Positions 6,682 to 61,578 of a stretch of 64,000 bases of DNA are shown one piece after another. The notes under the pieces are model-generated. The model saw only the letters and a program-made list of their open reading frames with translations. It did not search any database and was not told the DNA's origin. Position 1 is the first letter of the stretch. Each line of letters opens with the position of its first letter. The stretch comes from Tenericutes bacterium ADurb.BinA124 (GTDB taxonomy: Bacteria > Bacillota_I > Bacilli_A > ML615J-28 > CAG-698): the NCBI GenBank assembly GCA_002068415.1, contig MVZM01000001.1, positions 140,597 to 204,596 on the forward strand, in the 5' to 3' direction. Position numbers and translations under genes: made by a program.

Positions 6682-8073
6682 ATGCCTTTTGAAAGTTTAT
6701 CTGAAAGAATCCAAATGTCCTTACGCCGGATTACCGGCCGTGGTAAATTAAACGAAAATGATATTGAAGAAATGATGAAAGAAGTCCGCCTTTCCTTGTT
6801 GGAAGCGGATGTCAACTATAAAGTTGTTAAGAGTTTTACTGCCGAATTAAAGCAAAAAGCTTTGGGCGAAAAGATTTTAAAATCGCTTACTCCGGGCGAA
6901 ATGGTTGTGAAAGTCGTTCATGACGAGTTAAAGCGCCTAATGGGTGATGAAGCCGTTTTGGTTAACTATCGCTCCAGCGGGCCTTCCGTTTTTATGTTGG
7001 TGGGTTTGCAAGGCTCGGGGAAGACCACGCAAGTAGGAAAACTAGCCCAATTTTTAAGAAAAAAAGATGGCAAAAAACCTCTTTTGATTGCCGGTGATAT
7101 TTATCGTCCGGCGGCTATTAACCAATTAGAAACGATTGGACGCCAACTGGGGATTGAAGTTTTTCAAATGGGAACAACGACCAAAGTTGTGGACATTGTT
7201 ACCAAAGGGATTGCCTATGCGAAAAGTAAAAGTTATGATTTAGTGATTATTGATACGGCCGGACGCTTGCATATCAACGAAGAAATGATGCAAGAACTCA
7301 ACGATGTGCAAAAAGTAGCTAAACCCGATGAAATTTTATTAGTCATTGATGCCATGATGGGGCAAGATGCCCTCAATGTCATTACGACTTTTAATGAAAA
7401 ATTGCCGATAACGGGATGCATCCTAACCAAGTTAGATGGTGATTCCCGCGGTGGTGCCGCCTTATCCGTTCGTTATTTAACGAAGATTCCGATTAAGTTT
7501 GCGGGAATGGGGGAAAAATTAGACCAAATTGAAATTTTTCATCCCGATCGGATGGCGGGACGGATTCTCGGCATGGGGGATATTGTCACCTTGGTGGAAA
7601 AAGCTTCCGAAAACATCGATGAAGCTGAAGCCATGAAATTGGCCGAACGCATGCAAAAAGGATTGTTTAATTACAATGATTTCATTAAGCAAATCAAGTG
7701 GATTAGAAGAATCGGTTCTTTAAAAGGCATTTTAGGAATGATTCCGGGCCTCGGAAAACAACTAAAAAACATGGAAATTGACGAAAAACAGTTCACTTAT
7801 CTGGAAGCCATCGTTTTATCCATGACACCTGAAGAACGAAAAAATCCGGAAATGTTAACTAAAAGTTTATCAAGGCGGGAACGCTTGTCTCGGGGTTCGG
7901 GTCGACCTTATCCTGAAGTCAATGCTTTGATTAAACGCTTTGAAGATATGAAAACCCAAATGTCGGCGTTTACGAAAATGAGCGAAAATCCGCAAGCCCG
8001 CCCCACAATGCCCAATGTTCAACGCAAAGCAAGCAAGGGTAAAGGCAAAGGTCGAGGTAATTTTCGATTTTGA
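6682..8073 (+). CDS. ffh: Signal recognition particle protein Ffh (SRP54)
   Basis: GLQGSGKTT and DTAGR motifs, M-domain, basic Gly/Lys-rich tail. Confidence 0.95.
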   Translation: MPFESLSERIQMSLRRITGRGKLNENDIEEMMKEVRLSLLEADVNYKVVKSFTAELKQKALGEKILKSLTPGEMVVKVVHDELKRLMGDEAVLVNYRSSGPSVFMLVGLQGSGKTTQVGKLAQFLRKKDGKKPLLIAGDIYRPAAINQLETIGRQLGIEVFQMGTTTKVVDIVTKGIAYAKSKSYDLVIIDTAGRLHINEEMMQELNDVQKVAKPDEILLVIDAMMGQDALNVITTFNEKLPITGCILTKLDGDSRGGAALSVRYLTKIPIKFAGMGEKLDQIEIFHPDRMAGRILGMGDIVTLVEKASENIDEAEAMKLAERMQKGLFNYNDFIKQIKWIRRIGSLKGILGMIPGLGKQLKNMEIDEKQFTYLEAIVLSMTPEERKNPEMLTKSLSRRERLSRGSGRPYPEVNALIKRFEDMKTQMSAFTKMSENPQARPTMPNVQRKASKGKGKGRGNFRF

Positions 8074-8081
8074 GGTGAAAT

Positions 8082-9908
8082 ATGAATTTTAAGGAATTTG
8101 AAGAAAGAATCAGCAATATCAATAACCAGATTTTTGCTTTTTTCATGCAAATTGAGGAAGAGGAGAATAAGCAAATTAATGATGTTTTTCAATCCTTAAA
8201 ACAAAACCTCGATTCCCAAAAAAACATTCTTGTTGATTTTGAAAGGCAACTAAAAGAGGATGATGATCAATATCAAAGTAAAATTGCTGCTTTGGAAAAA
8301 GAAATATTAAATATTGCTAGCGAACCCGAAACTTATTTACATATCTTGGAAGAAAAAAAAGCTTTTCTAAGCCAAAAGAAGAATGATGAACAAAAACGTA
8401 TTTTGGCTTTACAAAGGCGGCGTCGCAGTGAATTTGCCCATCGCATCAACACTCTAAACAAGGAATTGTCGCTTTTATTAAAGGAACATAATAATCAATT
8501 AGAAGAAGAAGAAAAAAACTATAAAGCCAAAGAAACGGAATTAATGCGCCGAATGAATATTGATTTGCAAAAGGCGAATGAAAAAACGGTCAAGGCGTCC
8601 AGCGATTTAGAAAAACAACTTCTTGAAACCAATGATTTAAGCGGGATTGCGGAAATCAAAAAGAAAATTGTAGCCATTCGGACTGAAGGCTTTAAGGAAC
8701 AGGAAAGCATCAAAAACAAATATGAATTTTCCTTTATTGAAAACACCTTGGATTTTAAACGCTTTTACGAAAAGATTTCCTTGGATAATGCTTTAACGCA
8801 AGAAGATTTTGCGGTTAAGATTAAAGCACTCGAAAAACAAAGGAATGATTTAGAATTAGCGGAGCAGCTGGAGTTTGCTTTATTTGGTTTTGAATTGGAT
8901 AAACAATATAACGAATGGGAAAAAGAACAAAATTTACACGCCATTGAATGGCAAATCCAAAATTTTGCTCAACAAATGCTTATTAAAAACCAAATTCAAG
9001 ATGAAAAACATCAATATGATTTGCATCATTTTGAAAATAATAAAAACTATCTTCAAAAAGCTCATGAAGTCGATACCATGCAATTTGCATCATATCGACC
9101 CTTGGAATTATTAATTTCTAATAATATCAAAAAACAATGCGATTGCTTGCTAGAAGGTCTTGCGGACTGCATTGAAATATTCCAAGCCCATTTAATTGCG
9201 ATTGTGGAAAATACTTGGAATTTAAAAAAGAGTTTGCGTAATGATTTATCGAAGTTTTTATTGGTGACCATTAAAAACGAATTGCCGCTCATTGAACCTC
9301 ATTATAGCCATGAATTGACGAAAATTGAGCACTTTTGTTTAGAATATTATAAATTACAAAACAAACGATTTAAAAATTTTTTACGGTCTGTTGCTTCCCA
9401 AGCCCACAATTTACTTCAAGAAGTAAAAGCAACCATGGCTATTTTTAAAAATTACTATCTTGAGGAACAAGCTTACCGAGAAGAAATGGACAAAAAAATG
9501 AATTCGTCGTTATTAAAGAGTTATGAAAATGCTTTGCTTTATTTAGCGGGTGATTATCATCAAGAAGAAAATAACGAAAAAAATTATCATCGCCAAGTCC
9601 AAGACGAAAAGGAAAAACATCGTTTGAGTATGGAATTAAAAAAACAAACGGCGATGAAACTTTATCATGACCAACTAAAAGCCATTGAAGAAAAAAGTAA
9701 AAAGGCGACTTTGGAAAACCAACGATTAGTTGCCGATGAGGAAAACAATTATCAATTATTTATTAAAAATTCCAAACAAAAACAATCAGCTTTTAAACGC
9801 GATTTTAGTGATCATTTAATTCTCCATGAGCGTTCTTTGGATAAACAATATCGTTTGGCTTTACAAAGGAACGAAAAAGAGCGTAAAGCTAAAATCAAAG
9901 CATTATAA
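8082..9908 (+). CDS. 608-aa K/E/Q-rich coiled-coil protein, function unknown
   Basis: Long uninterrupted ORF with heptad-like charged repeats and no enzymatic motif. It sits where rpsP-rimM-trmD-rplS normally follow ffh. Confidence 0.5.
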   Translation: MNFKEFEERISNINNQIFAFFMQIEEEENKQINDVFQSLKQNLDSQKNILVDFERQLKEDDDQYQSKIAALEKEILNIASEPETYLHILEEKKAFLSQKKNDEQKRILALQRRRRSEFAHRINTLNKELSLLLKEHNNQLEEEEKNYKAKETELMRRMNIDLQKANEKTVKASSDLEKQLLETNDLSGIAEIKKKIVAIRTEGFKEQESIKNKYEFSFIENTLDFKRFYEKISLDNALTQEDFAVKIKALEKQRNDLELAEQLEFALFGFELDKQYNEWEKEQNLHAIEWQIQNFAQQMLIKNQIQDEKHQYDLHHFENNKNYLQKAHEVDTMQFASYRPLELLISNNIKKQCDCLLEGLADCIEIFQAHLIAIVENTWNLKKSLRNDLSKFLLVTIKNELPLIEPHYSHELTKIEHFCLEYYKLQNKRFKNFLRSVASQAHNLLQEVKATMAIFKNYYLEEQAYREEMDKKMNSSLLKSYENALLYLAGDYHQEENNEKNYHRQVQDEKEKHRLSMELKKQTAMKLYHDQLKAIEEKSKKATLENQRLVADEENNYQLFIKNSKQKQSAFKRDFSDHLILHERSLDKQYRLALQRNEKERKAKIKAL

Positions 9909-9930
9909 AAAACGCGTTTTATCGCGTTTT
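9907..9930. terminator. Bidirectional hairpin terminator (coiled-coil gene / ruvA)
   Basis: aaaacgcg-ttttat-cgcgtttt perfect stem; overlaps the ruvA stop codon. Confidence 0.5.
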
Positions 9931-10501
9931 AGATTAATTTTTTTAAAACAATTTTAATTAGTTCATTAATGGGTTTATCAATATTGGCTTCCATGGTTGC
10001 TTGCATGGCTTTGATTTCGTTGTTGCTATAACCCATGGCTTTTAGAGCATCCCGCAAATCTTTGAGTTTCGGATTTTCTTTGGCGCTAATTTGATTAAAG
10101 TCCAGTTTTCCGTGTAAATCCAAAATAATTTGTTGGCTGGCTTTTGGACCAATGCCGGGGAAGCGCTGTAAATATTTACTGTCGGCTGTTTGGATGGCTT
10201 GAATGACTTGATCAATGGTCCCGCTAGCAATGATGGCCATTGCTCCTTTCGGGCCAATGCCCTTAACCGAGATTAATTTTAAGAAAAAATCGCGTTCTTC
10301 GACGCTTTTAAACCCATATAAATCGAGGATATCCTCACGAACATGTAAATAGGTATGGACTTGTACTTCCGTACCCATTTCGAAACTAAAAGGATTGCCG
10401 GTTTTTATTAAATAACCGATGCCATTAGTTTCGACAACAACATAGTCACCACGGACAATTGTGACAACACCTTTAAGATAATTATACAATTTATTCACCA
10501 C
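9929..10501 (-). CDS. ruvA: Holliday junction DNA helicase RuvA
   Basis: MVNKLYNYLKGVV…GIGY N-terminal OB domain and HhH motifs (GIGPK). Confidence 0.85.
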   Translation of the reverse strand: MVNKLYNYLKGVVTIVRGDYVVVETNGIGYLIKTGNPFSFEMGTEVQVHTYLHVREDILDLYGFKSVEERDFFLKLISVKGIGPKGAMAIIASGTIDQVIQAIQTADSKYLQRFPGIGPKASQQIILDLHGKLDFNQISAKENPKLKDLRDALKAMGYSNNEIKAMQATMEANIDKPINELIKIVLKKLI

Positions 10502-42223: not shown

Positions 42224-43429
42224 GTGATTAATATGGATACACAGAAAGAATTATTTCGGATTGGCTATGGACCGTCCAGCTCACATACCATGGGACCCCA
42301 AAAAGCGGCCCAATTGTTTCTTGAAAAATATCCCCAAGCTAATCGGTTTGTAGTTGATTTATATGGTGCTTTAGCTTTAACCGGTCGGGGTCATTTAACG
42401 GATTTCATCATTAAACGAATGTTAGGAGAAGAACGAACTGAAATTCGGTTTTTGGGAGAACTCTTTTATGAATATCATCCCAACGGGATGAAATTTTATG
42501 CTTATCGCGATGAGCAATTATTAGGCGATTGGTTAGTGTTTTCCGTGGGTGGGGGTGCTTTAAAAGAACTGAATGAAAATCGCGAATCCCATCCCAACCA
42601 TTTTTATCGTTTTAAAACGATGAAAGATATTCTTAATTATTTAACGACTTATAAACGATCTTTTCTTGATTATGTGCTGGAATCGGAGCCTAGTGATATT
42701 TTAACTTGGGCAGAAGAAGTCATCGATGTAATGTTTGCGAGCGTTGAAAAAGGCTTGGTTAATCATCGGGTTCTTCCAGGGCCCTTAAAAATAAAACGGC
42801 GGGCAGCCAACTTTTATAAGCAATATCAAAAAAATAATGATTTTAATGCTTTAATTTTTGCGGCTACTTTAGCGGTTTCCGAAGAAAATGCTGGTGGCGG
42901 TTTAATCGTTACAGCGCCAACTTGCGGTTCGAGCGGGCTTGTTCCGGGCGTGCTTTATTCATATGCTATTAAGGAAAAAATCCCTAAACAAAACTTAGCC
43001 CAAGCTTTGTTGGTTGGCGGTCTTTTCGGCAATCTTGTGAAGGAAAATGCTTCGATTAGTGGTGCTGAAGTCGGTTGTCAAGGTGAAATTGGGACGGCCT
43101 GCTGTATGGCGGCGGCGGCTTTAGCGTATTTACGAGGTGGGACTAATTTCCAAATTGAATATGCGGCGGAAATTGCTTTAGAACATCATTTAGGAATGAC
43201 ATGTGATCCGGTGTTAGGTTATGTGCAAATTCCTTGCATTGAAAGAAATGCCATTTCCGCTAAACGGGCAATCGATGCTTGTGATTATGCTTTATTAACG
43301 GATGGAAAACATTTTATTGATTTTGACAGCGTTGTGACGACTTTAAAAGAAACAGGAAAAGACTTAAATGCCATCTATCGGGAGACTTCACTTGGTGGCT
43401 TGGCTAAGGTCAAAATTGATTATGAATAA
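42224..43429 (+). CDS. sdaA: L-serine dehydratase (single-chain, Fe-S dependent)
   Basis: Beta-domain N-terminus GYGPSSSHT; alpha-domain motifs TAPTCGSSG and CQGEIGTACCMAAAAL. GTG 42224 or ATG 42233, very close to a TATAAT. Confidence 0.7.
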   Translation: MINMDTQKELFRIGYGPSSSHTMGPQKAAQLFLEKYPQANRFVVDLYGALALTGRGHLTDFIIKRMLGEERTEIRFLGELFYEYHPNGMKFYAYRDEQLLGDWLVFSVGGGALKELNENRESHPNHFYRFKTMKDILNYLTTYKRSFLDYVLESEPSDILTWAEEVIDVMFASVEKGLVNHRVLPGPLKIKRRAANFYKQYQKNNDFNALIFAATLAVSEENAGGGLIVTAPTCGSSGLVPGVLYSYAIKEKIPKQNLAQALLVGGLFGNLVKENASISGAEVGCQGEIGTACCMAAAALAYLRGGTNFQIEYAAEIALEHHLGMTCDPVLGYVQIPCIERNAISAKRAIDACDYALLTDGKHFIDFDSVVTTLKETGKDLNAIYRETSLGGLAKVKIDYE

Positions 43430-44552
43430 TCAAGGTCATACTTCACTGGGGCTTATCAATGCCCTCTTAGCGCATTTTAATGTTCCTATTCATCATGCAC
43501 CGCTGTTGCTTCTTAAGCCCTATTTGGAAAAACAACCGCAAAATGTCGTTTTACTAGTTCTTGATGGACTGGGTGAAAGCATTCTCAATTATTTTGAACC
43601 CCAAGGTTTTTTAAAAAAACATCAACTGGCCACAATCAAGGCGGTTTTTCCGCCAACAACGGTGGCGAGTATTAATACTTTAGAGTCGGGAAAGTCACCG
43701 AAAGAACATGCTTGGTTGGGATGGAGTCTTTATTTCCATGAATGGGATCGCTTTATTGACATTTTTCCTTATCAAGATTCATTGACAAATGAAAAAATAC
43801 CGCTTGAACGCGGTAATGCTAAGGAAATCTTGCAGTATCAAGATGTTTATAGCCAAATCGCTACTCATAGTGATACTAAATGTTATGTTATTCATCCGCA
43901 CAATATAGAAAGAACGGGGGAACATTTTGAAACGGTCTATAGTCAAAACTTTGAAGAAACCGTTAAAATAATCCGTGAGTTATGTAAAGACGATGTTCGA
44001 AAATACATCTATGCCTATAGCCCGGAACCGGATTATTCCTTACATGTTTTGGGAACCAAAAACCTTGAAGTTGGGAATAAGATTGCGGAAATGGAATGGT
44101 TAATTAAAACTTATTTGCAAGATGTCAAGGATTCATTAATTATCATTACGGCTGACCACGGCTTGGTTGATATTGAGGAACATATTGACATCAGTGCGAT
44201 TCCCGAATTAAATGCATGTTTAATTAGGCCTTGTTTTTTGGAACCGCGTTGTACTAGTTATTTTGTGAAGGCGGAAAAAAAGGAACATTTTAAAACCTTG
44301 TTTAACCAAAGGTTTCACCAAGACTTTATCTTATATGAAAAAAACGATCCCTTTTTACACCAATTATTTGGTGAAGGTCATCCCCATGCGAAATTTATGG
44401 ACTTTATTGGCGATTTTGTGAGTGTGGCGATGACAAACAAAACGATTATTTATAAAGGTAAGCGCGATAAATTCAGTTTTTCTTTTAAAGCTCATCATGC
44501 TGGAATGACGGATGCGGAAATGAATGTCCCTTTAATTATTATATCCAATTAA
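43422..44552 (+). CDS. Alkaline-phosphatase-superfamily protein (type I phosphodiesterase / nucleotide pyrophosphatase-like)
   Basis: LVLDGLG…FPPTTVASINTLESGKSPKEHAWLG…TADHG metal-site motifs. Its 3' end carries the island's left direct repeat. Confidence 0.6.
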   Translation: MNNQGHTSLGLINALLAHFNVPIHHAPLLLLKPYLEKQPQNVVLLVLDGLGESILNYFEPQGFLKKHQLATIKAVFPPTTVASINTLESGKSPKEHAWLGWSLYFHEWDRFIDIFPYQDSLTNEKIPLERGNAKEILQYQDVYSQIATHSDTKCYVIHPHNIERTGEHFETVYSQNFEETVKIIRELCKDDVRKYIYAYSPEPDYSLHVLGTKNLEVGNKIAEMEWLIKTYLQDVKDSLIIITADHGLVDIEEHIDISAIPELNACLIRPCFLEPRCTSYFVKAEKKEHFKTLFNQRFHQDFILYEKNDPFLHQLFGEGHPHAKFMDFIGDFVSVAMTNKTIIYKGKRDKFSFSFKAHHAGMTDAEMNVPLIIISN

Positions 44553-44559
44553 AAAAGTA
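44512..44559 (+). repeat. Left 48-bp direct repeat (attL-like); last 13 codons plus stop of the AlkP-family gene
   Basis: gatgcgg[a]aatgaatgtccctttaattattatatccaattaaaaaagta; recurs at 47516-47563 with one mismatch. Confidence 0.65.
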
Positions 44560-44565
44560 GATAAT

Positions 44566-44597
44566 GGACCATTAAAAGTAGCCCCTAGTAAAAGGGC
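44566..44597 (+). terminator. Perfect 11-bp hairpin just inside the island
   Basis: aaaagtagccc-ctagtaaaa-gggctactttt. Confidence 0.4.
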
Positions 44598-44743
44598 TAC
44601 TTTTAATGTAGAATTGCCAATGTGATATGCGACTAAAAGAACAAAAGAGGAAGAAAAAAGGAGCTAATTAACAGTTTCCAACTAAGTCTTAGTTGATTCT
44701 TATTAAGTTTTTAAAAAAAACTATATTTAAGATGAAAATTTAA

Positions 44744-45693
44744 TCACTCGCGATAGTTTTTAATAATTGTTGGCAAAATCCCTCGATTGTAAATTTCATT
44801 TATAGATTCAATGCATTCCAAATATGTTAATTTTTGATGAACTAATGTCGTTGTTACTGATTCATAATCTTCTTTATATGGGTTCGTGTTTACGATTTCA
44901 TGTAAAATTGATTGCGGATTTTCACCTGGATTACAAGAGAGGTTTTGTTTCCCGTGAATCTGTCGATCTTTTATGACATCATCGATAATGTTTTCAATTA
45001 ATTTTTCATCTATTAATTTACTAGTCCACATTTTATGTAAATCATAGATGTGTCTTGAATGTCTAAAATATTTTTTTTGTAGATGGTAATCACAAATTGC
45101 AAACAACTTATCAATTAAAGTTCTTTCGATTGTTTGAACTAACATTTTAAATGGTTCAAGATGATATTGTTTAATTAAATTCATTTGGTTGTTTTTATTT
45201 AGATACTTAGTAATGTAATTACTTACTTCCATTTCTTTGACTGGATAAGGTTTATAAACTACAATTGTTTCAACAATTATAAATGGTACTGTATTTTGTT
45301 CTTTTTCAAAGTGATTACTGAAGCCAATACGGTACTCATTATGATCTTTTCTTGAGAGAACATCATTATGATTAAGTAATTCCATTTTTAATGTCTCAAT
45401 AATTTGCAATATATCTGCTTTTAGTTGTTTTCTTTGCCCTTGCGTTACTTGTTTATTATTAAATCTTATTGCTAAATCAATATCCTCTGAAAACTATCAA
45501 TTACATCATAACATTTTGATAATGATGTTCCTCCTTTAAACACAACTTGGATATTTGATTTAAGTTTGGTTAACTCTTTCAAAAACAAAGACACAAAATA
45601 ATCTTTTTCAACTTGAAATTCACTTAATCCGTATTCCTCTGCTACCGTTTTGATAATTGTTTCAAATATTTCCTTATGATTGTGTAATTGCAT
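44744..45693 (-). pseudogene. abiEii: AbiEii/AbiGii-family nucleotidyltransferase toxin (type IV TA / abortive infection), disrupted by a -1 frameshift in an A4 run at 45490-45493
   Basis: N-terminus has FKGGTSLSKCY; restoring one A gives …DSFSEDIDLAIRFNNKQ…QGQRKQLKADILQIIETLK…, continuous with ORF 44744-45409. Confidence 0.65.
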
Positions 45694-46348
45694 TTAATCC
45701 ACCTATCTTATAAAACTTTACTTGTGCTTCTAGCGGATATGCTGATAATATCTCTTCCACTTCTTGTTCTTTTAAATCAATGGTACTTAAAAACGATAAT
45801 ATTTGCGTTGATGATTTCTTTAAATCATACTCACTATACTTCTCAAAGTTATTTAATAAATCTAGTACTTGGAGTAGTTTATAGTTTTTATTATTCACCA
45901 TTACTCTTGGAGCATTTACGATTACTCGATTGTTTTTGATTTTTATTTCTCTTTTTTTATTTGAAACTTGATTTGAATAGATTGTTGAAACAACAGCTAT
46001 TTGTGATGTAAGTCCAAGTTGGTTTGCAAAGTTAATTCCACTTTCGTAACCAATTCTTATACCAGAATCATTAAATATATACTTCTTTTGAATCACATCA
46101 CTCACATAGACTGTTGTCTTTCCGAAAATGCTACTTTTATTTGGTAAGCCATAAACACCTTTGTCAAGTTTTTCAAGTTGTCCTGATTCAGTAAATCTTT
46201 TAAAAATTGATCTTATCGTCCCCTTGCTAATATTAGGAAATTCTTGATAAATATCTTTAACAAAAATAGGAGTTTGTTTATCATAATTATTCATAATATA
46301 GTTTAGGATGTTATCCTTCGTTTTTAATGCTTTCATTATTTTTATCAC
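45674..46348 (-). CDS. abiEi: AbiEi-family antitoxin / transcriptional regulator
   Basis: N-terminal winged-HTH-like region (…ISKGTIRSIFKRFTESGQLEKLDKGVYGLP…). Directly upstream of abiEii with a 20-nt overlap. Confidence 0.6.
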   Translation of the reverse strand: MIKIMKALKTKDNILNYIMNNYDKQTPIFVKDIYQEFPNISKGTIRSIFKRFTESGQLEKLDKGVYGLPNKSSIFGKTTVYVSDVIQKKYIFNDSGIRIGYESGINFANQLGLTSQIAVVSTIYSNQVSNKKREIKIKNNRVIVNAPRVMVNNKNYKLLQVLDLLNNFEKYSEYDLKKSSTQILSFLSTIDLKEQEVEEILSAYPLEAQVKFYKIGGLNAITQS

Positions 46349-46384
46349 CCTTTTTAAGCATAGTATAACATGGTTTTTATATTA

Positions 46385-46425
46385 TTGCAACGGTTTTTCT
46401 TTTTTTAGTAGAAATACCGTTGCAA
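46385..46425 (-). promoter_or_regulatory. Putative AbiEi operator: 10-bp perfect inverted repeat TTGCAACGGT-N21-ACCGTTGCAA upstream of abiEi
   Basis: Seen directly in the sequence 37-77 nt upstream of the abiEi start; AbiEi antitoxins are known to autorepress through inverted repeats. Confidence 0.35.
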
Positions 46426-46918
46426 AATATTGTGAAACTTATTTTGTTAATTTTATTATTAATTACATAAATTTTTCTTTTGCTGTTTTTTCAGTTGTGG
46501 AGAAAGCGTTTAATATTTGTTCTTATGCTTTGATTGAGATAGCTTTATTTTGCTTAATGATAGTGAATTATTTTTAGCTTTTTTCTTTACCATTTTTGTG
46601 ATAGCATTTTAACTTCTAGTCTTAATCTTTTTATGATTGTCAATGATATGAGACTAAAAGCACAAAAGAAGAAGGAAAATAAAGGCTACTTTTTAGGGGT
46701 GTGTTATTCAAACGGTGGTCGTTTTTTTATTATTAATAGGTTTTATTTTTTCGTTTACAAATAGAAACGGGAATAATGTGGTGGGATGCCTGGCTTTCAT
46801 TAATCTTTGTGTGTCAAATAACTCCCTCGGATTCTCGCTACACCTCTTTTAGATTATCAATTATTGAGGAGTTCGATGGATTTTTACTGATATGATTAGC
46901 TGTCTTTTTTATCATATT

Positions 46919-47440
46919 CTAGAGCTGGCATCTAACTTTTTTACACGTTGAATATCTCATTATAACTAATGTCAAAATTATGTTTACTTCACTTAGAAAT
47001 TCCTCTGTTGGAACAAACGGTTGATGATATGCTTTGTCATAAATCTTTCTTAAGGTAAATCCTTGTAGACTAATAATTCCTACTCGACCAGCCAAAGTTT
47101 CGACAACACTTTTCATTAAAGGGAATGACTGTGATTCTGTTAGATAGAAAAACCGACTTCACTACTTTTGTTAGCTCCATCTAATGTGCGAAAATAACCC
47201 TAAATCATATTGAACATCATCAATTATAAGCTGGTCTATATGTTTTAAAAAAATATTTGGCTTCTCTTTTACGATTATCAACATAACGGAATTATTAAAA
47301 GAAACATATTCCAAATTGCCTAGGTTGTTTTTCAAGCGTGGTTTTGCTAACTTACCTTATCCCGTCAGTGAGATAACTGAAAACATTTTTGCTGCTTTTT
47401 TATAATTCCTTCGACATGCTTCTTGATATACATGTGCTCA
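46919..47440 (-). pseudogene. Remnant of a DUF4143/COG1373 AAA+ ATPase gene (fragmented)
   Basis: The 65-aa ORF 46919-47116 encodes …ETLAGRVGIISLQGFTLRKIYDK…. A family-like N-terminus MYIKKHVEGIIKKQQ… lies near 47435 on the minus strand in a different frame. Confidence 0.35.
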
Positions 47441-47515
47441 CATTCTTTCGACTAAATCAAATTGCAACTTTATTTTAGTCGAAAACAACCGCTTTGTAAC
47501 ACCTTCTAATTTGTA

Positions 47516-47563
47516 GATGCGGGAATGAATGTCCCTTTAATTATTATATCCAATTAAAAAAGT
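47516..47563 (+). repeat. Right 48-bp direct repeat (attR-like)
   Basis: 47/48 identical to 44512-44559; followed by the original hairpin gtacaccgcgtgtac. Confidence 0.65.
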
Positions 47564-47580
47564 ACACCGCGTGTACTTTA
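47555..47580. terminator. Bidirectional terminator (ancestral AlkP gene / coaD)
   Basis: aaaaaagtacac-cgc-gtgtacttt perfect 6-bp stem with flanking A/T runs; abuts the coaD stop. Confidence 0.5.
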
Positions 47581-48087
47581 CAATTTAGAATTCTTATTTA
47601 AAACGGCTGATATTCGTTCTTTAATTCTGTCTGCTAAACCGGCAGGCACATAATCTTTTATTTCACTGTCAAACATCACCAATTCTTTAATGGAAGAAGA
47701 GGACAAAAAGAGATTATTGGTCGAAGGGAAGAGGACAAAAGTGTCAATGTCTTGATCAATCGAATGATTGAACTGGAAAAGGGTTATCTCATTTTGATAA
47801 TCGATAAAATTTCTTAAACCACGAATAATGACTTTGGCTTGCTTTTGTTTGGCATAATTTAAAACCAATTGGTTGCTGGCTTCTACTTCAACATTATCTA
47901 AATGTTTGGTAGCGAATTTTAATAATTCAACGCGTTCTTCACCGGAGAAAATATATGTTTTATAAGGGTTTAATGAAACCAGGACATATACTTTATCAAA
48001 AACTTTCGAAACTCGTTCGATAATATCTAAATGACCATTGGAAACGGGATCAAATGACCCGGGATACACAGCTATTTTCATATTCAC
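47578..48087 (-). CDS. coaD: Phosphopantetheine adenylyltransferase
   Basis: AVYPGSFDPVSNGHLDIIER (HxGH nucleotidyltransferase motif). Confidence 0.9.
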   Translation of the reverse strand: MNMKIAVYPGSFDPVSNGHLDIIERVSKVFDKVYVLVSLNPYKTYIFSGEERVELLKFATKHLDNVEVEASNQLVLNYAKQKQAKVIIRGLRNFIDYQNEITLFQFNHSIDQDIDTFVLFPSTNNLFLSSSSIKELVMFDSEIKDYVPAGLADRIKERISAVLNKNSKL

Positions 48088-55629: not shown

Positions 55630-56520
55630 ATACTGACAAAAATAAAAGTGGAGGAAAGTAATTTAAGCCCGTCAGTATGCAAGGGTTTAAGTTATTAGAA
55701 ATGTATGCGTAAATTTTCAAAATTAGTCGTTCTATGCTTGACCTTGGTGATGGCTCTTTTCTTAGCATCTTGTAAAGAGACAATTGAACTAAGCTTTGAA
55801 AACGAAACGATGACGATGATTGTTGGTGATACGAAAACATTAGTTCCGGTGGCCAACAAAGAAGGTTTAACTTATGAATGGACGTCGGATAAAACCGCAG
55901 TTGTTACGGTTGATGCCGGGCTTGTTACCGCTGTTAGTGCGGGGACGGCTAAAGTAACTGTCAAGGTTAAAGACAAAGATGTCAGTGCGACCATTACCAT
56001 TACGGTTAATCCTGTCGTCATTAGTTTTACGGAAAAAACGATGACCATTGCCATCGATCAAAGCGTGACTTTAACGCCAACGGTTGTGCCAGCCCAAACG
56101 ATGACTTATACCTGGACAACTAGCGATGCAAGTGTGGCGACGGTTACTAACGGTGTTGTTAAGGGAATAAAAGTCGGAACAGCGACGGTTACAGCATCGG
56201 GGAAGGGTGGAAGTGCTTCCATTACAATTAATGTTGTTTTACCTAATCCGACCCAAGTAACGATTACTGGGGCATCGGCAAGTGCTAAAGTTGGCGCTAC
56301 TATGCAACTTGGAGCAACAATCTTACCAGCGAAAGCTTCCCAAGCTGTTACTTGGAAATCAAGTGATACCAAGCTGGCAACGGTTTCCGCAAGCGGTTTA
56401 GTGACTTTCGTCGGTGTTGGTAAAGTGACCATTACGGCAACATCGGTCGCTTTGGATAGCCAAAAGGCAAGTGTGACCATTGATGTTGGGGCTCCTGATC
56501 CGACTAAAGTAGCGATTACC
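55630..56520 (+). repeat. 891-bp segment identical to 61687-62577 (copy 1: leader plus 5' end of lipoprotein gene 1)
   Basis: Identity checked at both ends and through identical embedded ORF translations. Divergence starts abruptly at 56521/62578. Confidence 0.85.
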
Positions 56521-59500
56521 GGGGCTTCTACAACCGCTAAAGTTGGCGATAAAATGCAACTTAGCGCTACGGTATTACCGGCTACAGCTTTACAAACTGT
56601 TGCTTGGAAATCAAGTGATACCACATTGGCAACTGTTACACCAGCCGGTTTAGTGACTTTCCTTGGCATGGGAAGTGTTACCATTACCGCGACATCTACC
56701 GTTTTGAATACTCTTAAAGCAACAGTGACCATTGAGGTTGGCGCTCCCGATCCAGCAAGCATTGCTGTTACCGGCACTGATGGCAAGGATCGAGTTATTA
56801 TTGGTGAAACCTTGCAAATGCTTGCGGTTGTTTCTCCGGAACTAGCTAATCAAGGTGTAAGATGGTCAACCTCGGATGAAACCATTGCGACGATTGATGA
56901 AAATGGTTTATTAAATGCTTTGAAAGTCGGAGAAATTACTGTTATTGCGACTTCAACAGTTTTAGAAACAGTGTCTGGTCAAGTGACCATTAATGTGGTT
57001 CTTCCTGAACCGGTCGGTATTGAGGTAAAGGGTGATGAATCTGTTCTTCAAGTTGCGGAAACGGTTCAGTTAACTACGGTTATTCAACCATTACATGCTT
57101 CACAAGAAGTCATTTATTCTTCGAGTGATGAAGCAATCGCCACGGTTTCCGAAAGTGGTTTAGTTACCGGTGTTAGTGCTGGTACGGCGGCGATTATTGT
57201 TAAGAGTAAGGCTTTAGAAACCGTATTAATGACTTACACAGTTAAAATTGTTGCCAAGATTGAAAATCCTGATTATTCTCATATTTTAGTTGATGCTAAT
57301 TTGGAAGCTGAACGTTATTCAACGCTTACTTTTGATGGTGTTGATTACATTGTTGGTATCAATGCTTTCAAATCATTAGCACAAGGCTTTGGAAAAATCG
57401 TTGAAGGTTCAACGGTTATGATTCTTGCTGGAACTTATGAAGAAGCCGCTGCTGTTAACTTTAACAATGTCACGATTCTTGGTCCTAATGCCCTTATTAA
57501 TCCGGTAACTGATTTAGAATCGCGTTTGCCGGAAGCAATTCTTACTAAGAAATTGACATTAGGTGCTGTTCAAAATATCGTTATCAAAGGGATTGAATTG
57601 ACCGCTCAAGGGCAAATTTACTCTGCGAAAAACTTGAAAAACATCACAGTTGAAAATGTCTATACGGTTTATTCTTCCGTTGAGGCCGCTCAAGGGGTCA
57701 TTTATTTCGGTATTTCCGATGATAGCTTGAAAAATGAAGACTTATTATTTAAGAACAATTCCTTGAATGATACGAGAAAACAAGGTTATCGGGGAATTCG
57801 TGTTAATAATGCCTATAATATCACGATTGAAGGCAACTATTTTTATGGTTTCTTTGATACTATTCGTTTAGAAGGAACGGGTAATAGCGGCTGGACGCAA
57901 CCCGGAACTGGTTGTGGGGCTGCGGGAGTTGTTTTAATCCAAAACAATACTTTCCGGATGAATATCCAATATCCAATTCTTCTTGGCCGTTACAGTGCAA
58001 CAAAAGTTGACATTTTAAATAATGATATCGGTGTTGACCCGGATCATAGCGGTGTTTATGGCTTAACGAACATTATTAACTTTGCTCCGGAAGCCGGTGC
58101 TCCAAAAACCGTTGTTAACATTAAATACAATAATTTCTTACACAACACTGCTTGGCATGATGTTCGTTTCAAAACGGGAACGGCTACGGCTGACCAACTA
58201 GAAATCAATGTTAACTTCAACAAATTTAATGAAGGAGTTTGCATTGATCCGACTGATGGACCATGTAATTATATTGACAATGGTGGGACAAGTGCTTCCA
58301 AAAACAACATCATTAACGGTCAATTTAACTATTTCGCCGTTAAACCGATTGAAGATGAATTCCGTGGTTTGAATGACAAGGGCTTTGCTCCTTATTATCT
58401 TACTTTGGAAGAATACAACGATGCTTTAACAGCATACTTCGTTGATCCAAGCTTGGTTGGTAAAGCTGGCGGTGATGCTGTAGTTGTCCAAGGTCTTAAC
58501 TTAGTCTTTGGCGAACGTGCTTTCGCAACCCTAGCTTCCGCTTTAGAAGCGGTACCGGCAAAAGCGACGATTATCGTTTTACCGGGTACTTATTCGGAAA
58601 AGATTACGATTGACAAAGGTGTGACCTTAAAGACTTTGAATGCCAATGTTAATCCAACAGAAGATGCGACCGCTTTCTTGGCTGCTTCGCCAACGGCTAC
58701 TATTTCCAATGAAGTATGGTATATCAAAGATGATGCCAATACAAGTGTTAATGACCTCACGATTAAGGGCTTTACTTTTACGGGTGGTGCGCGAATCAGT
58801 GAATATGGCGCTTCCGGCAATCAATATCGTTTCTTGTATGAAAACAATTATGCTTTTGACACAACGGCTCCGACCCTTGCTTGGAAACAGGACGCTTATT
58901 CTTCATATGGTGTGGGAACCGAAGCTGATACCGCTAAAGTTCCTGGTTTCATTAGCTTAGCTCCTAATGGTTTGTGGATGTATAATGTCGTTTTCCGCAA
59001 CAATAAATTCGTTAATGTAAAAGACACGAATATTTACTTAATGTGCTTACAAGGCGTAACGATTGAAGGTAATGAATTCTCGGGTGGTGACCGTGATGCG
59101 ATTCGTTTAGAATACGGCTCACAAGGTGGAATCTTCAACATTAAGAATAATACCTTTGAAAATATGAACTACAATGGTATTTATATTAGATCTTATAGTG
59201 GTAGCATTTATGCTCCGGATTTTGTTGCTAATATTTATTATAATACTTTCAAGAATGTCGGCTTGGCCGGGGCAACGGAAACACCAACACATACGAGAAT
59301 TGGCGCGATAGCAACAAGAGGCTATGGCGAAAAAATGAACGCTACTTTCAACATTCGCTATAATGCTTTTGAGAACTGCACCAATTATATTAGTTTACGT
59401 GCCAATGTCTCTAATGTTGAGAAATGGAATGCGGGAACGAAAAAGTGGATGGCTACGATTGAGTACAACTCCTTCATCGATGCTGATGGCGTTACCAAAT

Positions 59501-61578
59501 ATTTCCAAAACTTACTTAATGCTGGCGATACTGCTGCAACTAATGTCGATGATGTTTATATTAATTATAACTTCTACGGCACCGATGCGAATACGAAAGC
59601 CATAACCACGCTTGAACAATTTGATCATCATAAAGTGGCGGCCAGCAACTTAGTTGTTTACAATACCCTGGCAGAATTAGAAGCCGGAAGAGCTACTTCC
59701 CTCATTCCTGCTTCCGTTGTTGTCACGGGAAAAGCTGAGCTGAAAGGTGGCGAAGTGGCCAACTTTAGTGCGACAGTTCTTCCGAATACCGCTCCGCAAG
59801 ATGTTGTATGGAGTACATCTAATGCTAGTATTGCGATTGTTGATGAAAATGGCAAAGTAACGGGATTGAAACCGGGAACTGCAAAAATTAAAGCAACAGC
59901 TAAAGATTTAGATACTGTTTTTGGGGAATTTGATGTTACGGTTGAAGGTGTGCTGACTGCTAGTTTCTTAGTTGATGCTGAAACAGCAACGATGGAAGAA
60001 CTTGCGAAAGTAACTTATGGCGGCAAAGATTATTATGTCGGCGTGAACGCTTTTGATACTTTAGCAAAAGCGATGGCCGTTGCTGATACTGGTACAACTA
60101 TCTATGTCAATAAAGGGACTTACTTAGACACTGATGCGATTACCATTAATAAAGACAATCTTTCACTTTTAGGACCGAATGCTAATATTGATGGTGTTAT
60201 CGGTGCTCGCGGTGATGAAGCAATTATCAACAGCAAGATTACCCTTGCTAGCGGCGTTAAAAATGTCGTTATCAATGGTTTCTATTTCAATCACAAGCCG
60301 GGTACTTGCGTTGTTACCGGTGAAGCTGCGGGCTTAATTGATGGCTTTAAGTTCATTAATAATATTGTTGATGGCTATGGCGGTGATGGTAGCAGTGGCT
60401 TCATTGTCTTCAAACAAGCAAGTGCTGAAGCTAAAATAATGAACTTCACCATTAGCCATAACAAATTCTTCAGTTTCGGCTCAGATCGGATAGTCCGGAT
60501 GGCTTATGTAGAAAACCTAATCTTCACCAACAACTTACTCCTTGATGCTTCGACGGATGGGCTTCGTTTACACGATAATGCCGGCGGCATTATGGGCACA
60601 TTGCAGATTGTTGGTAACACCTTTAACAATGTTGGTCAATTCGCTGTCTTTATTGGTACATCAGCTTGTACGAGCATCGTTATTACCGATAACAATTTTG
60701 TCAGCAACGGTCATGTATATGATGGTGCTGCACTTTCCCTTCGCAAAACCGGCGTTGATGCCGCTGGAACAACAATTTTAATCGCTAATAACTTCTTTGA
60801 TCGCAGTTCCGATTATGATATTCGGATTGATCATAGTGCTGTTGAAGCTGATAATCTAGTAATTACCGTTTCCGGAAATGTCTTCAAGACCGCTCCTAAG
60901 CGCTTCTATTATTATAACAATATTTCCGATCCAGTTCCGGCAGTTAAGACAAACTTTACGGGCAATATCATTTATGCGGCTGACGGTGTTACCGTAGCTG
61001 ATCCGGCGACGGTCGCTGATAAGATTAAAAATGCGACGGTTGCTGATGCTAACCCAGCTTTAGACTTATTCTTTAGTGAATATGGCGAAGGCTCAAGCAA
61101 TAACAAGTGGTTGGAAATCTATAACCCAACTAATGCCGCTATTGATTTAAGTGGCTACAAAGTAGAACTATATACCAATGGTAATACTAATGTTCAAAAC
61201 AGCTTAACCTTCCAAGCCGGAACCATGCTGGCAGCCGGCGATGTCCTCTTAATTGTCAATGATAAAATCGAGGCTTCCCAAAAATTACCGGGAGCTATCG
61301 AAAGCAATGTTACTTACTTCAATGGTAACGATGCCCTTGTCTTGAAAAAAGGCGATGTCGTAATTGATATTATCGGTTTAGTGGGCAATGATCCAGGAAC
61401 TAACTGGGCGGTTGGTGTCGGTGCAACTTCGGAATACACCCTAGTTCGTAAATCTTCTTATGCTGGACTTCCGTTAACCGTCTTTGCTCCGGAACAATGG
61501 GATGTTTACCCGCAAAATTATTTCGGGAATATGGATAGCCATGCCTATTTACCGGCTTATGTAGCTCCGGCTTCATAA
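55705..61578 (+). CDS. Giant surface lipoprotein (1957 aa): lipobox, about 8 Big_2 Ig-like domains, beta-helix I, Big_2, beta-helix II, C-terminal lamin-tail domain
   Basis: - Signal peptide …LFLASC.
- Repeated about 85-aa …TVKVGDTxxL…VxWxSSD…ATVxxxGxVTAVxxGTAxITA units.
- PbH1-type repeats (NNTFRMN, YNNFLHN, YNTFKN, RYNAFEN).
- C-terminal …LFFSEYGEGSSNNKWLEIYNPT…GYKVELY… lamin-tail fold (about 61051-61575). Confidence 0.7.
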   Translation: MRKFSKLVVLCLTLVMALFLASCKETIELSFENETMTMIVGDTKTLVPVANKEGLTYEWTSDKTAVVTVDAGLVTAVSAGTAKVTVKVKDKDVSATITITVNPVVISFTEKTMTIAIDQSVTLTPTVVPAQTMTYTWTTSDASVATVTNGVVKGIKVGTATVTASGKGGSASITINVVLPNPTQVTITGASASAKVGATMQLGATILPAKASQAVTWKSSDTKLATVSASGLVTFVGVGKVTITATSVALDSQKASVTIDVGAPDPTKVAITGASTTAKVGDKMQLSATVLPATALQTVAWKSSDTTLATVTPAGLVTFLGMGSVTITATSTVLNTLKATVTIEVGAPDPASIAVTGTDGKDRVIIGETLQMLAVVSPELANQGVRWSTSDETIATIDENGLLNALKVGEITVIATSTVLETVSGQVTINVVLPEPVGIEVKGDESVLQVAETVQLTTVIQPLHASQEVIYSSSDEAIATVSESGLVTGVSAGTAAIIVKSKALETVLMTYTVKIVAKIENPDYSHILVDANLEAERYSTLTFDGVDYIVGINAFKSLAQGFGKIVEGSTVMILAGTYEEAAAVNFNNVTILGPNALINPVTDLESRLPEAILTKKLTLGAVQNIVIKGIELTAQGQIYSAKNLKNITVENVYTVYSSVEAAQGVIYFGISDDSLKNEDLLFKNNSLNDTRKQGYRGIRVNNAYNITIEGNYFYGFFDTIRLEGTGNSGWTQPGTGCGAAGVVLIQNNTFRMNIQYPILLGRYSATKVDILNNDIGVDPDHSGVYGLTNIINFAPEAGAPKTVVNIKYNNFLHNTAWHDVRFKTGTATADQLEINVNFNKFNEGVCIDPTDGPCNYIDNGGTSASKNNIINGQFNYFAVKPIEDEFRGLNDKGFAPYYLTLEEYNDALTAYFVDPSLVGKAGGDAVVVQGLNLVFGERAFATLASALEAVPAKATIIVLPGTYSEKITIDKGVTLKTLNANVNPTEDATAFLAASPTATISNEVWYIKDDANTSVNDLTIKGFTFTGGARISEYGASGNQYRFLYENNYAFDTTAPTLAWKQDAYSSYGVGTEADTAKVPGFISLAPNGLWMYNVVFRNNKFVNVKDTNIYLMCLQGVTIEGNEFSGGDRDAIRLEYGSQGGIFNIKNNTFENMNYNGIYIRSYSGSIYAPDFVANIYYNTFKNVGLAGATETPTHTRIGAIATRGYGEKMNATFNIRYNAFENCTNYISLRANVSNVEKWNAGTKKWMATIEYNSFIDADGVTKYFQNLLNAGDTAATNVDDVYINYNFYGTDANTKAITTLEQFDHHKVAASNLVVYNTLAELEAGRATSLIPASVVVTGKAELKGGEVANFSATVLPNTAPQDVVWSTSNASIAIVDENGKVTGLKPGTAKIKATAKDLDTVFGEFDVTVEGVLTASFLVDAETATMEELAKVTYGGKDYYVGVNAFDTLAKAMAVADTGTTIYVNKGTYLDTDAITINKDNLSLLGPNANIDGVIGARGDEAIINSKITLASGVKNVVINGFYFNHKPGTCVVTGEAAGLIDGFKFINNIVDGYGGDGSSGFIVFKQASAEAKIMNFTISHNKFFSFGSDRIVRMAYVENLIFTNNLLLDASTDGLRLHDNAGGIMGTLQIVGNTFNNVGQFAVFIGTSACTSIVITDNNFVSNGHVYDGAALSLRKTGVDAAGTTILIANNFFDRSSDYDIRIDHSAVEADNLVITVSGNVFKTAPKRFYYYNNISDPVPAVKTNFTGNIIYAADGVTVADPATVADKIKNATVADANPALDLFFSEYGEGSSNNKWLEIYNPTNAAIDLSGYKVELYTNGNTNVQNSLTFQAGTMLAAGDVLLIVNDKIEASQKLPGAIESNVTYFNGNDALVLKKGDVVIDIIGLVGNDPGTNWAVGVGATSEYTLVRKSSYAGLPLTVFAPEQWDVYPQNYFGNMDSHAYLPAYVAPAS
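56253..56768 (+). repeat. Internal tandem duplication of a 258-nt Big_2-domain unit (2 copies, about 80% nt identity)
   Basis: Units 56253-56510 and 56511-56768 encode near-identical 86-aa Ig-like domains. Confidence 0.5.

Follow-up and report, generated by a model that had tools for sequence, protein, structure and literature searches.

An att-flanked islet with decayed defence genes at the 3' end of an AlkP-family gene: a probable integrase-less remnant of an integrative element in an uncultured digester bacterium

The stretch of DNA analyzed here (hereafter the window) is 64 kb long and belongs to an uncultured digester bacterium, named 'Tenericutes bacterium ADurb.BinA124' or 'Bacilli bacterium'. 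All coordinates are those of the whole window. Between a gene of the AlkP superfamily and the convergent gene coaD lies an islet of 2,956 nucleotides (nt), from 44560 to 47515, that is bounded by two copies of a direct repeat and carries an AbiE module together with the remnant of an ATPase gene. The gene order on the left is serine dehydratase, then AlkP; on the right, coaD is followed by an ABC transporter gene and gltX. CoaD adjoins AlkP in all close relatives. The features that define the two junctions, listed with their resemblance to attachment (att) sites where relevant, are the following:

43422-44552, plus strand: AlkP-superfamily type I phosphodiesterase / nucleotide pyrophosphatase gene (Pfam PF01663, 7e-12), 376 residues from the ATG at 43422
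44511-44559, plus strand: left direct repeat, attL-like, made of 13 AlkP codons, the stop codon and 7 nt, with GAA at the sole mismatch
44570-44608, no strand: islet hairpin with a perfect 15-bp stem and T-runs on both strands (100% complementary, fold energy -22.3 kcal/mol)
47516-47564, plus strand: right direct repeat, attR-like, non-coding, with GGA at the sole mismatch
47559-47579, no strand: putative ancestral bidirectional terminator hairpin AAAGTACACCGCGTGTACTTT, terminator-like in the scan, right after the second repeat copy
47578-48081, minus strand: coaD (phosphopantetheine adenylyltransferase; Pfam CTP_transf_like, 5e-20), convergent right neighbour

The repeat pair had been noticed in the first-pass annotation of the window, made from the sequence without database searches, as 48 nt with 47 identities extending 8 nt past the AlkP stop codon. 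The pair is real, but the left copy was off by one position: a repeat search places it at 44511-44559 and its partner at 47516-47564, that is 49 nt with 48 identities and a start-to-start spacing of 3005, covering the last 13 AlkP codons, the stop codon (44550-44552) and the 7 nt beyond it. The region contains no longer repeat. With up to three mismatches allowed, the 49-mer occurs at these two sites only in the window, and no match was obtained in 100 dinucleotide-preserving shuffles. At both repeat edges the identity breaks off abruptly, and the islet starts and ends exactly there. The target gene is intact: its product, 100% identical to the AlkP protein deposited for 'Tenericutes bacterium ADurb.BinA124', has a full-length C-terminus and could be aligned end to end with eight homologues, including the invariant E366 and the VPLI C-terminus. 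The sole mismatch between the repeat copies falls on this residue, since the expressed left copy reads GAA, coding for the Glu366 found in each of the nine aligned homologues, whereas the non-coding right copy reads GGA. The mismatch is informative but not decisive, as it could be explained by a variant that the element brought in or by drift at a later time.

An insert flanked by direct repeats of its target sequence is also what transposition with a 49-bp target-site duplication would produce. The islet does not have the make-up of a transposon or insertion sequence, given its 49-nt duplication, and no terminal inverted repeats were found at its ends; likewise, no transposase domain was detected in its open reading frames (ORFs) or translated frames. 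The target-site duplications that we know of are moreover far shorter, about 2-15 bp. Transposition is thus scarcely credible, the least probable of the explanations considered here. Searches of the islet and its flanks against Rfam and for tRNA genes gave no match, which rules out an att site of the tRNA or tmRNA type.

The base composition of the islet is foreign to its surroundings. The DNA between the repeat copies has a guanine-cytosine (GC) content of 28.6% against 38.5% for the rest of the window, where 552 windows of equal size have a standard deviation of 1.85% and a minimum of 34.4%, the islet lying more than 5 standard deviations lower. A GC comparison of this kind had been proposed as a check in the first-pass annotation.

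The most direct evidence for an insertion comes from related genomes. Relatives were found through the AlkP protein; a scan of the genome collection with the single AlkP sequence gave no match, and a scan with an alignment returned four close relatives only. Six related lineages (AlkP 50-72% identical) were found to have an empty, single-copy site, in which the AlkP stop codon, a terminator and coaD follow one another in a directly convergent arrangement. Loci used for comparison are designated by L numbers:

L011, L012 and L017: AlkP 72% identical, stop-to-coaD gap of 63 nt
L097: AlkP 68% identical, stop-to-coaD gap of 25 nt
L013 and L019: AlkP 65% identical, stop-to-coaD gap of 24 nt
L102: AlkP 55% identical, stop-to-coaD gap of about 37 nt
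L099 and L100: AlkP 54% identical, stop-to-coaD gap of 212 nt, with a small ORF
L103: AlkP 50% identical, stop-to-coaD gap of about 90 nt

The junction reads TAA followed by AAAGTACACTTTCGTGTAC in L013, by AAAAAGTACACAATTTGTGTGC in L097 and by AAAAGTACACCGCGTGTAC in the right repeat of the window. In both L013 and L097 a GTACAC..GTGTAC/GTGTGC hairpin stands directly 3' of the AlkP stop codon, and when the islet and one repeat copy are removed from the window the remainder matches these two loci through the stop codon, the A-run, the GTACAC hairpin and coaD. The empty junction (attB) reconstructed in this way reads ...GGAATGACGGATGCGGAAATG...AAAAAAGTACACCGCGTGTAC and the corresponding junction of a circular element (attP) reads ...CTAATTTGTAGATGCGGGAATG...AAAAAAGTAGATAATGGACC. 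Since excision of the islet with one repeat copy restores the gene end, the terminator and coaD, the ancestral arrangement is the empty site, and its presence in six lineages makes the islet a derived insertion. The single-copy arrangement had been predicted in advance by the first-pass annotation. The converse arrangement, named there as contrary evidence, i.e. two repeat copies without the islet, was seen in none of the relatives compared.

These comparisons also bear on the order of events. It could be imagined that the AlkP tail was first duplicated locally in tandem and that the AbiE module and the ATPase gene were inserted between the two copies later; a pair of nested inner repeats, described below, would fit such a separate rearrangement history of the islet interior. 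The site is nevertheless single-copy in six of the six empty lineages, no relative has two copies and no islet, and the bounds of the islet coincide exactly with the repeat edges, all of which makes a prior tandem duplication very improbable.

The spacer between AlkP and coaD is variable even in the genomes called empty, because L099 (9134-9355) and L100 (2475-2696) have an ORF of 73 codons there, with no family match. In more distant relatives of the Acholeplasmataceae type, two conserved genes (about 2 kb) lie between AlkP and coaD.

The insertion would also have exchanged the terminators of AlkP. The terminator-like hairpin at 47559-47579 has the sequence GTACACCGCGTGTAC and begins with GTA, the bases that also close the right repeat. 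By comparison with the hairpins that directly follow the stop codon in L013 and L097, it is the predicted original AlkP terminator, displaced to the coaD side and now separated from the AlkP stop codon by the islet, as had been proposed. Within the islet, the hairpin at 44570-44608 is probably a replacement bidirectional terminator, predicted to serve both AlkP and abiEii. It was missed by the consensus terminator scan because its loop is 9 nt long and the limit of the scan is 8.

A further lineage departs from the empty-site pattern. In a sister species represented by two independent assemblies (L018 and L098, AlkP 71% identical), the sequence diverges 2-3 bases past the stop codon into different, stop-riddled DNA (L018, 2458-3006; L098, 2166-2667), whose sole signal is a sub-threshold match to KwaB of the Kiwa system (E 0.002-0.003); both contigs stop before coaD. 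This DNA may stem from another, independent insertion at the AlkP end that has likewise decayed.

The position of the sister-species DNA helps to weigh another explanation, namely RecA-dependent Campbell integration, over the 49-nt homology and with no site-specific enzyme, of a circle that happened to include the AlkP 3' end, the circle having for instance been excised or transduced from a related genome. Such an event would give the same direct-duplication topology as site-specific recombination, and the failure to find an integrase in the islet agrees with it. However, the homology ends sharply, like an att core, whereas captured chromosomal DNA would fade, and the presence of an exact gene tail plus 7 nt on foreign DNA of 28% GC would be left unexplained. 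The different foreign DNA of the sister lineage begins within a few nucleotides of the same point, which indicates a preferred site. In addition, 49 nt is near the lower limit for efficient RecA recombination. RecA-dependent integration therefore appears improbable.

The coding content between the repeats consists of the following features, all on the minus strand:

44744-45693, minus strand: abiEii pseudogene, DUF1814 nucleotidyltransferase toxin, in two ORFs of 73 residues (45472-45693) and 221 residues (44744-45409), with Pfam AbiEii on both
45674-46348, minus strand: abiEi, intact, antitoxin / transcriptional repressor (PADLOC AbiEi, 2e-62; Pfam DUF6088, 3e-5, just under the cut-off)
46362-46435, minus strand: predicted abiE promoter/operator region, with a -35/-10 match and an extended TG (46390-46362) and an inverted repeat (46385-46425)
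46919-47440, minus strand: AAA_14 / PDC-S01-type ATPase remnant, the N-terminal ~170 codons with 4 in-frame stops and 2 frameshifts

An AT-rich segment with an AbiEi/AbiEii module, a broken AAA ATPase gene and no integrase had been described here from the sequence, and all of this stands except that the AbiE module is not intact. The two genes form a bicistronic unit in which abiEi overlaps the start of abiEii by 20 nt. AbiEi likely starts at the ATG at 46336, which gives a protein of 220 residues; 236 homologues were found, the nearest outside the species being 80% identical. AbiEii, in contrast, is split by a 1-nt deletion at about 45494, located by alignment with three intact homologues of 316 residues in the arginine codon of ...KGGTSLSKCYDVID-R-FSEDIDLA.... 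The deletion sits in the arginine codon of motif II and parts nucleotidyltransferase motif I (KGGT) from motif II (RFSEDID), so that no AbiEii nucleotidyltransferase with motifs I-IV in one frame is present here. When conceptually repaired, the 316-residue protein is recognized by Pfam (6.9e-28) and PADLOC (1.2e-80). The split is identical in all independent assemblies, and one of them (L002) has an additional 1-nt deletion at 44951. Mutagenesis of AbiEii has established that the motif I and II residues G49, R63, D67 and D69 are each needed for toxicity (PMC3985639). As the deletion lies between these two motifs, the toxin is dead and the module is without toxin-antitoxin or abortive-infection action.

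Upstream of abiEi, the 16-nt inverted repeat TTGCAACGG...CCGTTGCAA (94% complementary, -20.3 kcal/mol) overlaps the -35/-10 match. AbiEi was reported to bind inverted repeats of its own promoter (PMC3985639), and the layout found here is that reported for AbiEi autoregulation, which makes the repeat a candidate abiE operator. Judged from the sequence, only abiEi and its predicted autoregulated promoter look functional, i.e. the gene would persist as an orphan antitoxin or repressor.

The closest relatives of the module, L014-L016, share 78% nucleotide identity with it across 44737-46435 only, their AbiEi proteins being 78-80% identical; the DNA common with other AbiE modules stops at 46435. 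These loci are small tyrosine-integrase elements encoding, in this order, HTH_3, Phage_integrase, HTH_17 and Lin1244_N proteins, variable cargo, abiEi and abiEii. Two small ORFs follow abiEii in L014 (7629-12772), L015 and L016 (3787-10877), and the elements adjoin a pair of large serine recombinases; the cargo slot of L016 contains an additional AAA_21 ATPase gene and a gene of 175 codons. No convincing att repeats were found flanking the integrase elements of L014 and L016. No integrase lies within 8 kb of another AbiE homologue, L184, which implies that the AbiE module moves between contexts.

The ATPase remnant is more heavily damaged. Its Walker A motif is ruined, and it has lost ~270 codons at the C-terminal end. 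Once repaired, the reading is recognized by Pfam PF13173 AAA_14 (8.1e-12) and PADLOC PDC-S01 (9.2e-16), the latter over profile positions 31-147 of 422 only, and no full-length PDC-S01/AAA_14 ORF with an intact Walker A is present. A word-indexed protein search with the repaired stub gave no match because its sequence is too degraded. The 480-nt gap between the ATPase remnant and the abiE promoter (46436-46918) contains no recognizable coding remnant in any of the six frames (Pfam). Taken together, the truncated ATPase gene and the gap imply that at least one sizeable internal deletion happened.

The non-coding DNA of the islet contains a second repeat pair and a further hairpin:

44600-44658, plus strand: inner repeat, copy 1 (core 44623-44658)
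46626-46679, plus strand: inner repeat, copy 2 (core 46644-46679), inside the 480-nt gap
47446-47484, no strand: hairpin TTTCGACTAAA...TTTAGTCGAAA next to the right repeat, on the side of the ATPase remnant, with two CGACTAAA motifs in its arms

The cores of the inner repeat are 36 nt long and 89% identical within copies of about 59 nt with two small gaps, and the pair brackets the AbiE module. The inner repeat is absent from the rest of the window and from viral contigs (0 matches), and was found in the contigs of this species only. The pair may be the trace of an earlier nested event or of the end-point of a deletion. A degenerate third copy of the 49-nt repeat inside the islet, which would have signalled accretion, was not found, the best scores being no higher than those of shuffled controls. 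In the window, 8 occurrences of the octamer CGACTAAA were counted where about 2 were expected, three of them being in the non-coding ends of the islet (44630, 47449 and 47474), and a variant, GAGACTAAA, occurs at 46651. This octamer could be a candidate protein-binding motif, although the observation is post hoc and the numbers are small.

A more far-reaching scenario may be built on these elements. The junction between the AlkP stop codon and the terminator, where the window species and that of L018 and L098 have different decayed DNA, would be a recurrent dock for defence islets in this lineage, the islet would have grown by accretion of cassettes, and the outer and inner repeats together with CGACTAAA would be sites of an undescribed trans-acting recombinase that shuffles cassettes lacking an integrase of their own. 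We consider this scenario quite unlikely.

Remnants of mobility genes were searched by tblastn with the tyrosine integrase, serine recombinases, excisionase (Xis) and replication protein (Rep) of the nearest AbiE elements, and by Pfam on all ORFs and on the six frames of the gap. No gene for integration, excision or transfer was found inside the islet among all ORFs and gap frames. Similarly, the islet ORFs contain no phage structural, replication or packaging genes and in this respect resemble neither a prophage nor a phage satellite. A comparison of the whole islet with phage and plasmid collections in distant mode, a comparison with phages having been proposed as a check, did not deliver an element: it gave only matches of 68-71 nt, all in one stretch of abiEii. 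The only phage match, 68 nt to Mycoplasma phage phiMFV1 where no feature is annotated, falls in the AbiEii stretch that also gave the single plasmid match. Exact searches with the repeat core gave no match in viral contigs and none in metagenome contigs, the latter result being weak for this species because the search missed a known carrier of an exact 32-nt part of the repeat, the JGI contig Ga0116251_10000055 (L001).

The above data are best accounted for by the integration of a circular element followed by decay, and the segment 44560-47515 is probably the decayed, att-flanked and integrase-less remnant of an integrative element, similar to a cis-mobilizable element (CIME). In the proposed mechanism, the circular element would have borne a copy of the final ~49 nt of the AlkP-family gene. 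Campbell-type recombination of this circle with the chromosomal AlkP tail, most probably by a tyrosine integrase, would have doubled the 49 nt into attL and attR while keeping the AlkP reading frame. The element would have supplied a new AlkP terminator (44570-44608) and pushed the old one to the coaD side. Its cargo would originally have been directed against phages, with an AbiE toxin-antitoxin (TA) module of type IV and a PDC-S01-type AAA_14 ATPase, both of which are now dead. When a gene tail is duplicated in bacteria by integration of a circle, a tyrosine (or serine) integrase is normally responsible, and the nearest AbiE relatives are cargo of tyrosine-integrase elements, a contextual point for the integrase step. 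Of the reading put forward in the first-pass annotation, i.e. site-specific integration at a gene end with later loss of mobility, the integration is supported by the empty site and the preserved AlkP gene. That a site-specific integrase made the junctions, and that the element integrated with its mobility genes and had them deleted later instead of receiving their products in trans, we infer.

Several observations weigh against this interpretation. Neither the islet nor the 64-kb window contains remnants of an integrase, excisionase, replication or serine-recombinase gene, as far as such remnants are recognizable from sequence. The similarity to integrase-bearing elements spans the AbiE module only and not the ends of the islet, and the viral, metagenome, phage and plasmid collections yielded no parent element with the same ends or with this 49-nt site, the metagenome result being weak. 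Within the species, no allele with an empty site was seen; all contigs are occupied and nearly clonal. Finally, the decay of the ATPase stub (4 stops plus 2 frameshifts over ~170 codons) greatly exceeds the divergence of the free repeat copy (1 in 49), so that part of the decay probably predates arrival in this genome. This uneven decay suggests an element that was degraded before it came in, for which mobilization in trans is a better fit than in situ decay.

The islet might accordingly have arrived already decayed and never have had its own integrase here. It would then be an att-flanked passenger moved by a recombinase acting in trans, or by a helper element that was later excised precisely. 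Apart from the excess of ATPase decay over repeat divergence, this possibility can draw on the lack of an integrase fossil and on the little room for a deleted module at the ends of the islet: the right repeat is only ~75 nt away from the ATPase remnant, and the left one ~185 nt from abiEii. Accretion and cis-mobilization of such units are on record (PMC5704250). However, the window shows neither a helper element nor another att-related site, and the 480-nt gap with the truncated ATPase gene shows that a sizeable internal deletion did happen. The present data fit this possibility as well as the main explanation, mobilization in trans being considered the less probable of the two.

The islet structure was recovered in at least 8 independent metagenome assemblies from different samples, with at least 99.96% identity. 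It is therefore not an assembly artefact, and the islet is fixed in the sampled population. Two contigs (L005 and L010) break inside the repeat because of the repeat itself. Other breaks lie in the right part of the islet: L008 and L009 begin at 47363, L182 stops at 47368 (an overlap of 6 nt), and L183 switches at 47416 to 72 nt of unrelated GC-rich sequence that has no match in any compared locus or in Rfam. The breaks at 47363-47416 may reflect a polymorphic insertion or another structural variant of this part in some samples.

Two other regions of the window were noted. The sole other low-GC stretch, at 8001-10000 (33% and 31% in 1-kb bins), spans an ORF of 608 codons (8082-9908). An ORF of 1,957 codons at 55705-61578, whose product in matching contigs has Big_2, Beta_helix and LTD domains, probably codes for a surface protein and has no tie to the islet.

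Overall, the islet is a new instance, in terms of host lineage and target gene, of a well-known kind of structure, and no functional defence system is left in it. It offers a clean example of how integration at a gene end leaves a duplicated tail, swaps terminators and ends up, through decay, as a stub that has dead defence genes and no integrase. For the annotation of this metagenome-assembled genome from a digester, abiEii and the ATPase gene should be treated as pseudogenes and abiEi as an orphan antitoxin or repressor. The locus points to the AlkP 3' end as an attachment site in this lineage and adds a data point to the view that small tyrosine-integrase elements carry AbiE modules along as cargo. 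Its wider significance is small and would be greater only if the site turned out to be a hot spot that is used repeatedly, or the inner repeats to be functional in recombination.

Among known systems, the islet most resembles the CIMEs and decayed remnants of integrative and conjugative or integrative and mobilizable elements of Firmicutes, found for example at gene 3' ends in streptococci. Like them, it has attL/attR-type repeats, one of which restores the tail of the target gene, lacks genes for an integrase or for transfer, carries accessory toxin-antitoxin or defence cargo and has an empty site as its counterpart in related genomes (definition in PMC5704250). It differs from them in its dead cargo, in its target, an AlkP-family phosphodiesterase gene, and in its host, an uncultured 'Tenericutes/Bacilli' digester bacterium; moreover, no sign that it can still move was found. 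The comparison with defence islands and integration hot spots is looser. A variable, low-GC defence segment lies here too between syntenic core genes, and the same junction is occupied in L018 and L098; only two lineages were seen to be occupied, though, the second being weakly identified (E about 0.002), and the defence genes are here inactivated.

With the AbiE type IV TA systems of Streptococcus agalactiae and Lactococcus (Dy et al. 2014, PMC3985639), the module shares the overlapping abiEi-abiEii arrangement, the promoter inverted repeat and strong profile matches, but its toxin gene is frameshifted between nucleotidyltransferase motifs I and II. AbiE has been described as stabilizing mobile elements besides conferring resistance to phages (PMC3985639). 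The elements L014-L016 contain the closest AbiE module and the same order of an upstream ATPase-type cargo slot, abiEi and abiEii. They differ from the islet in their integration site, in an AAA_21 instead of an AAA_14 ATPase and, above all, in the integrase, Xis and Rep genes that they possess and that are traceless here.

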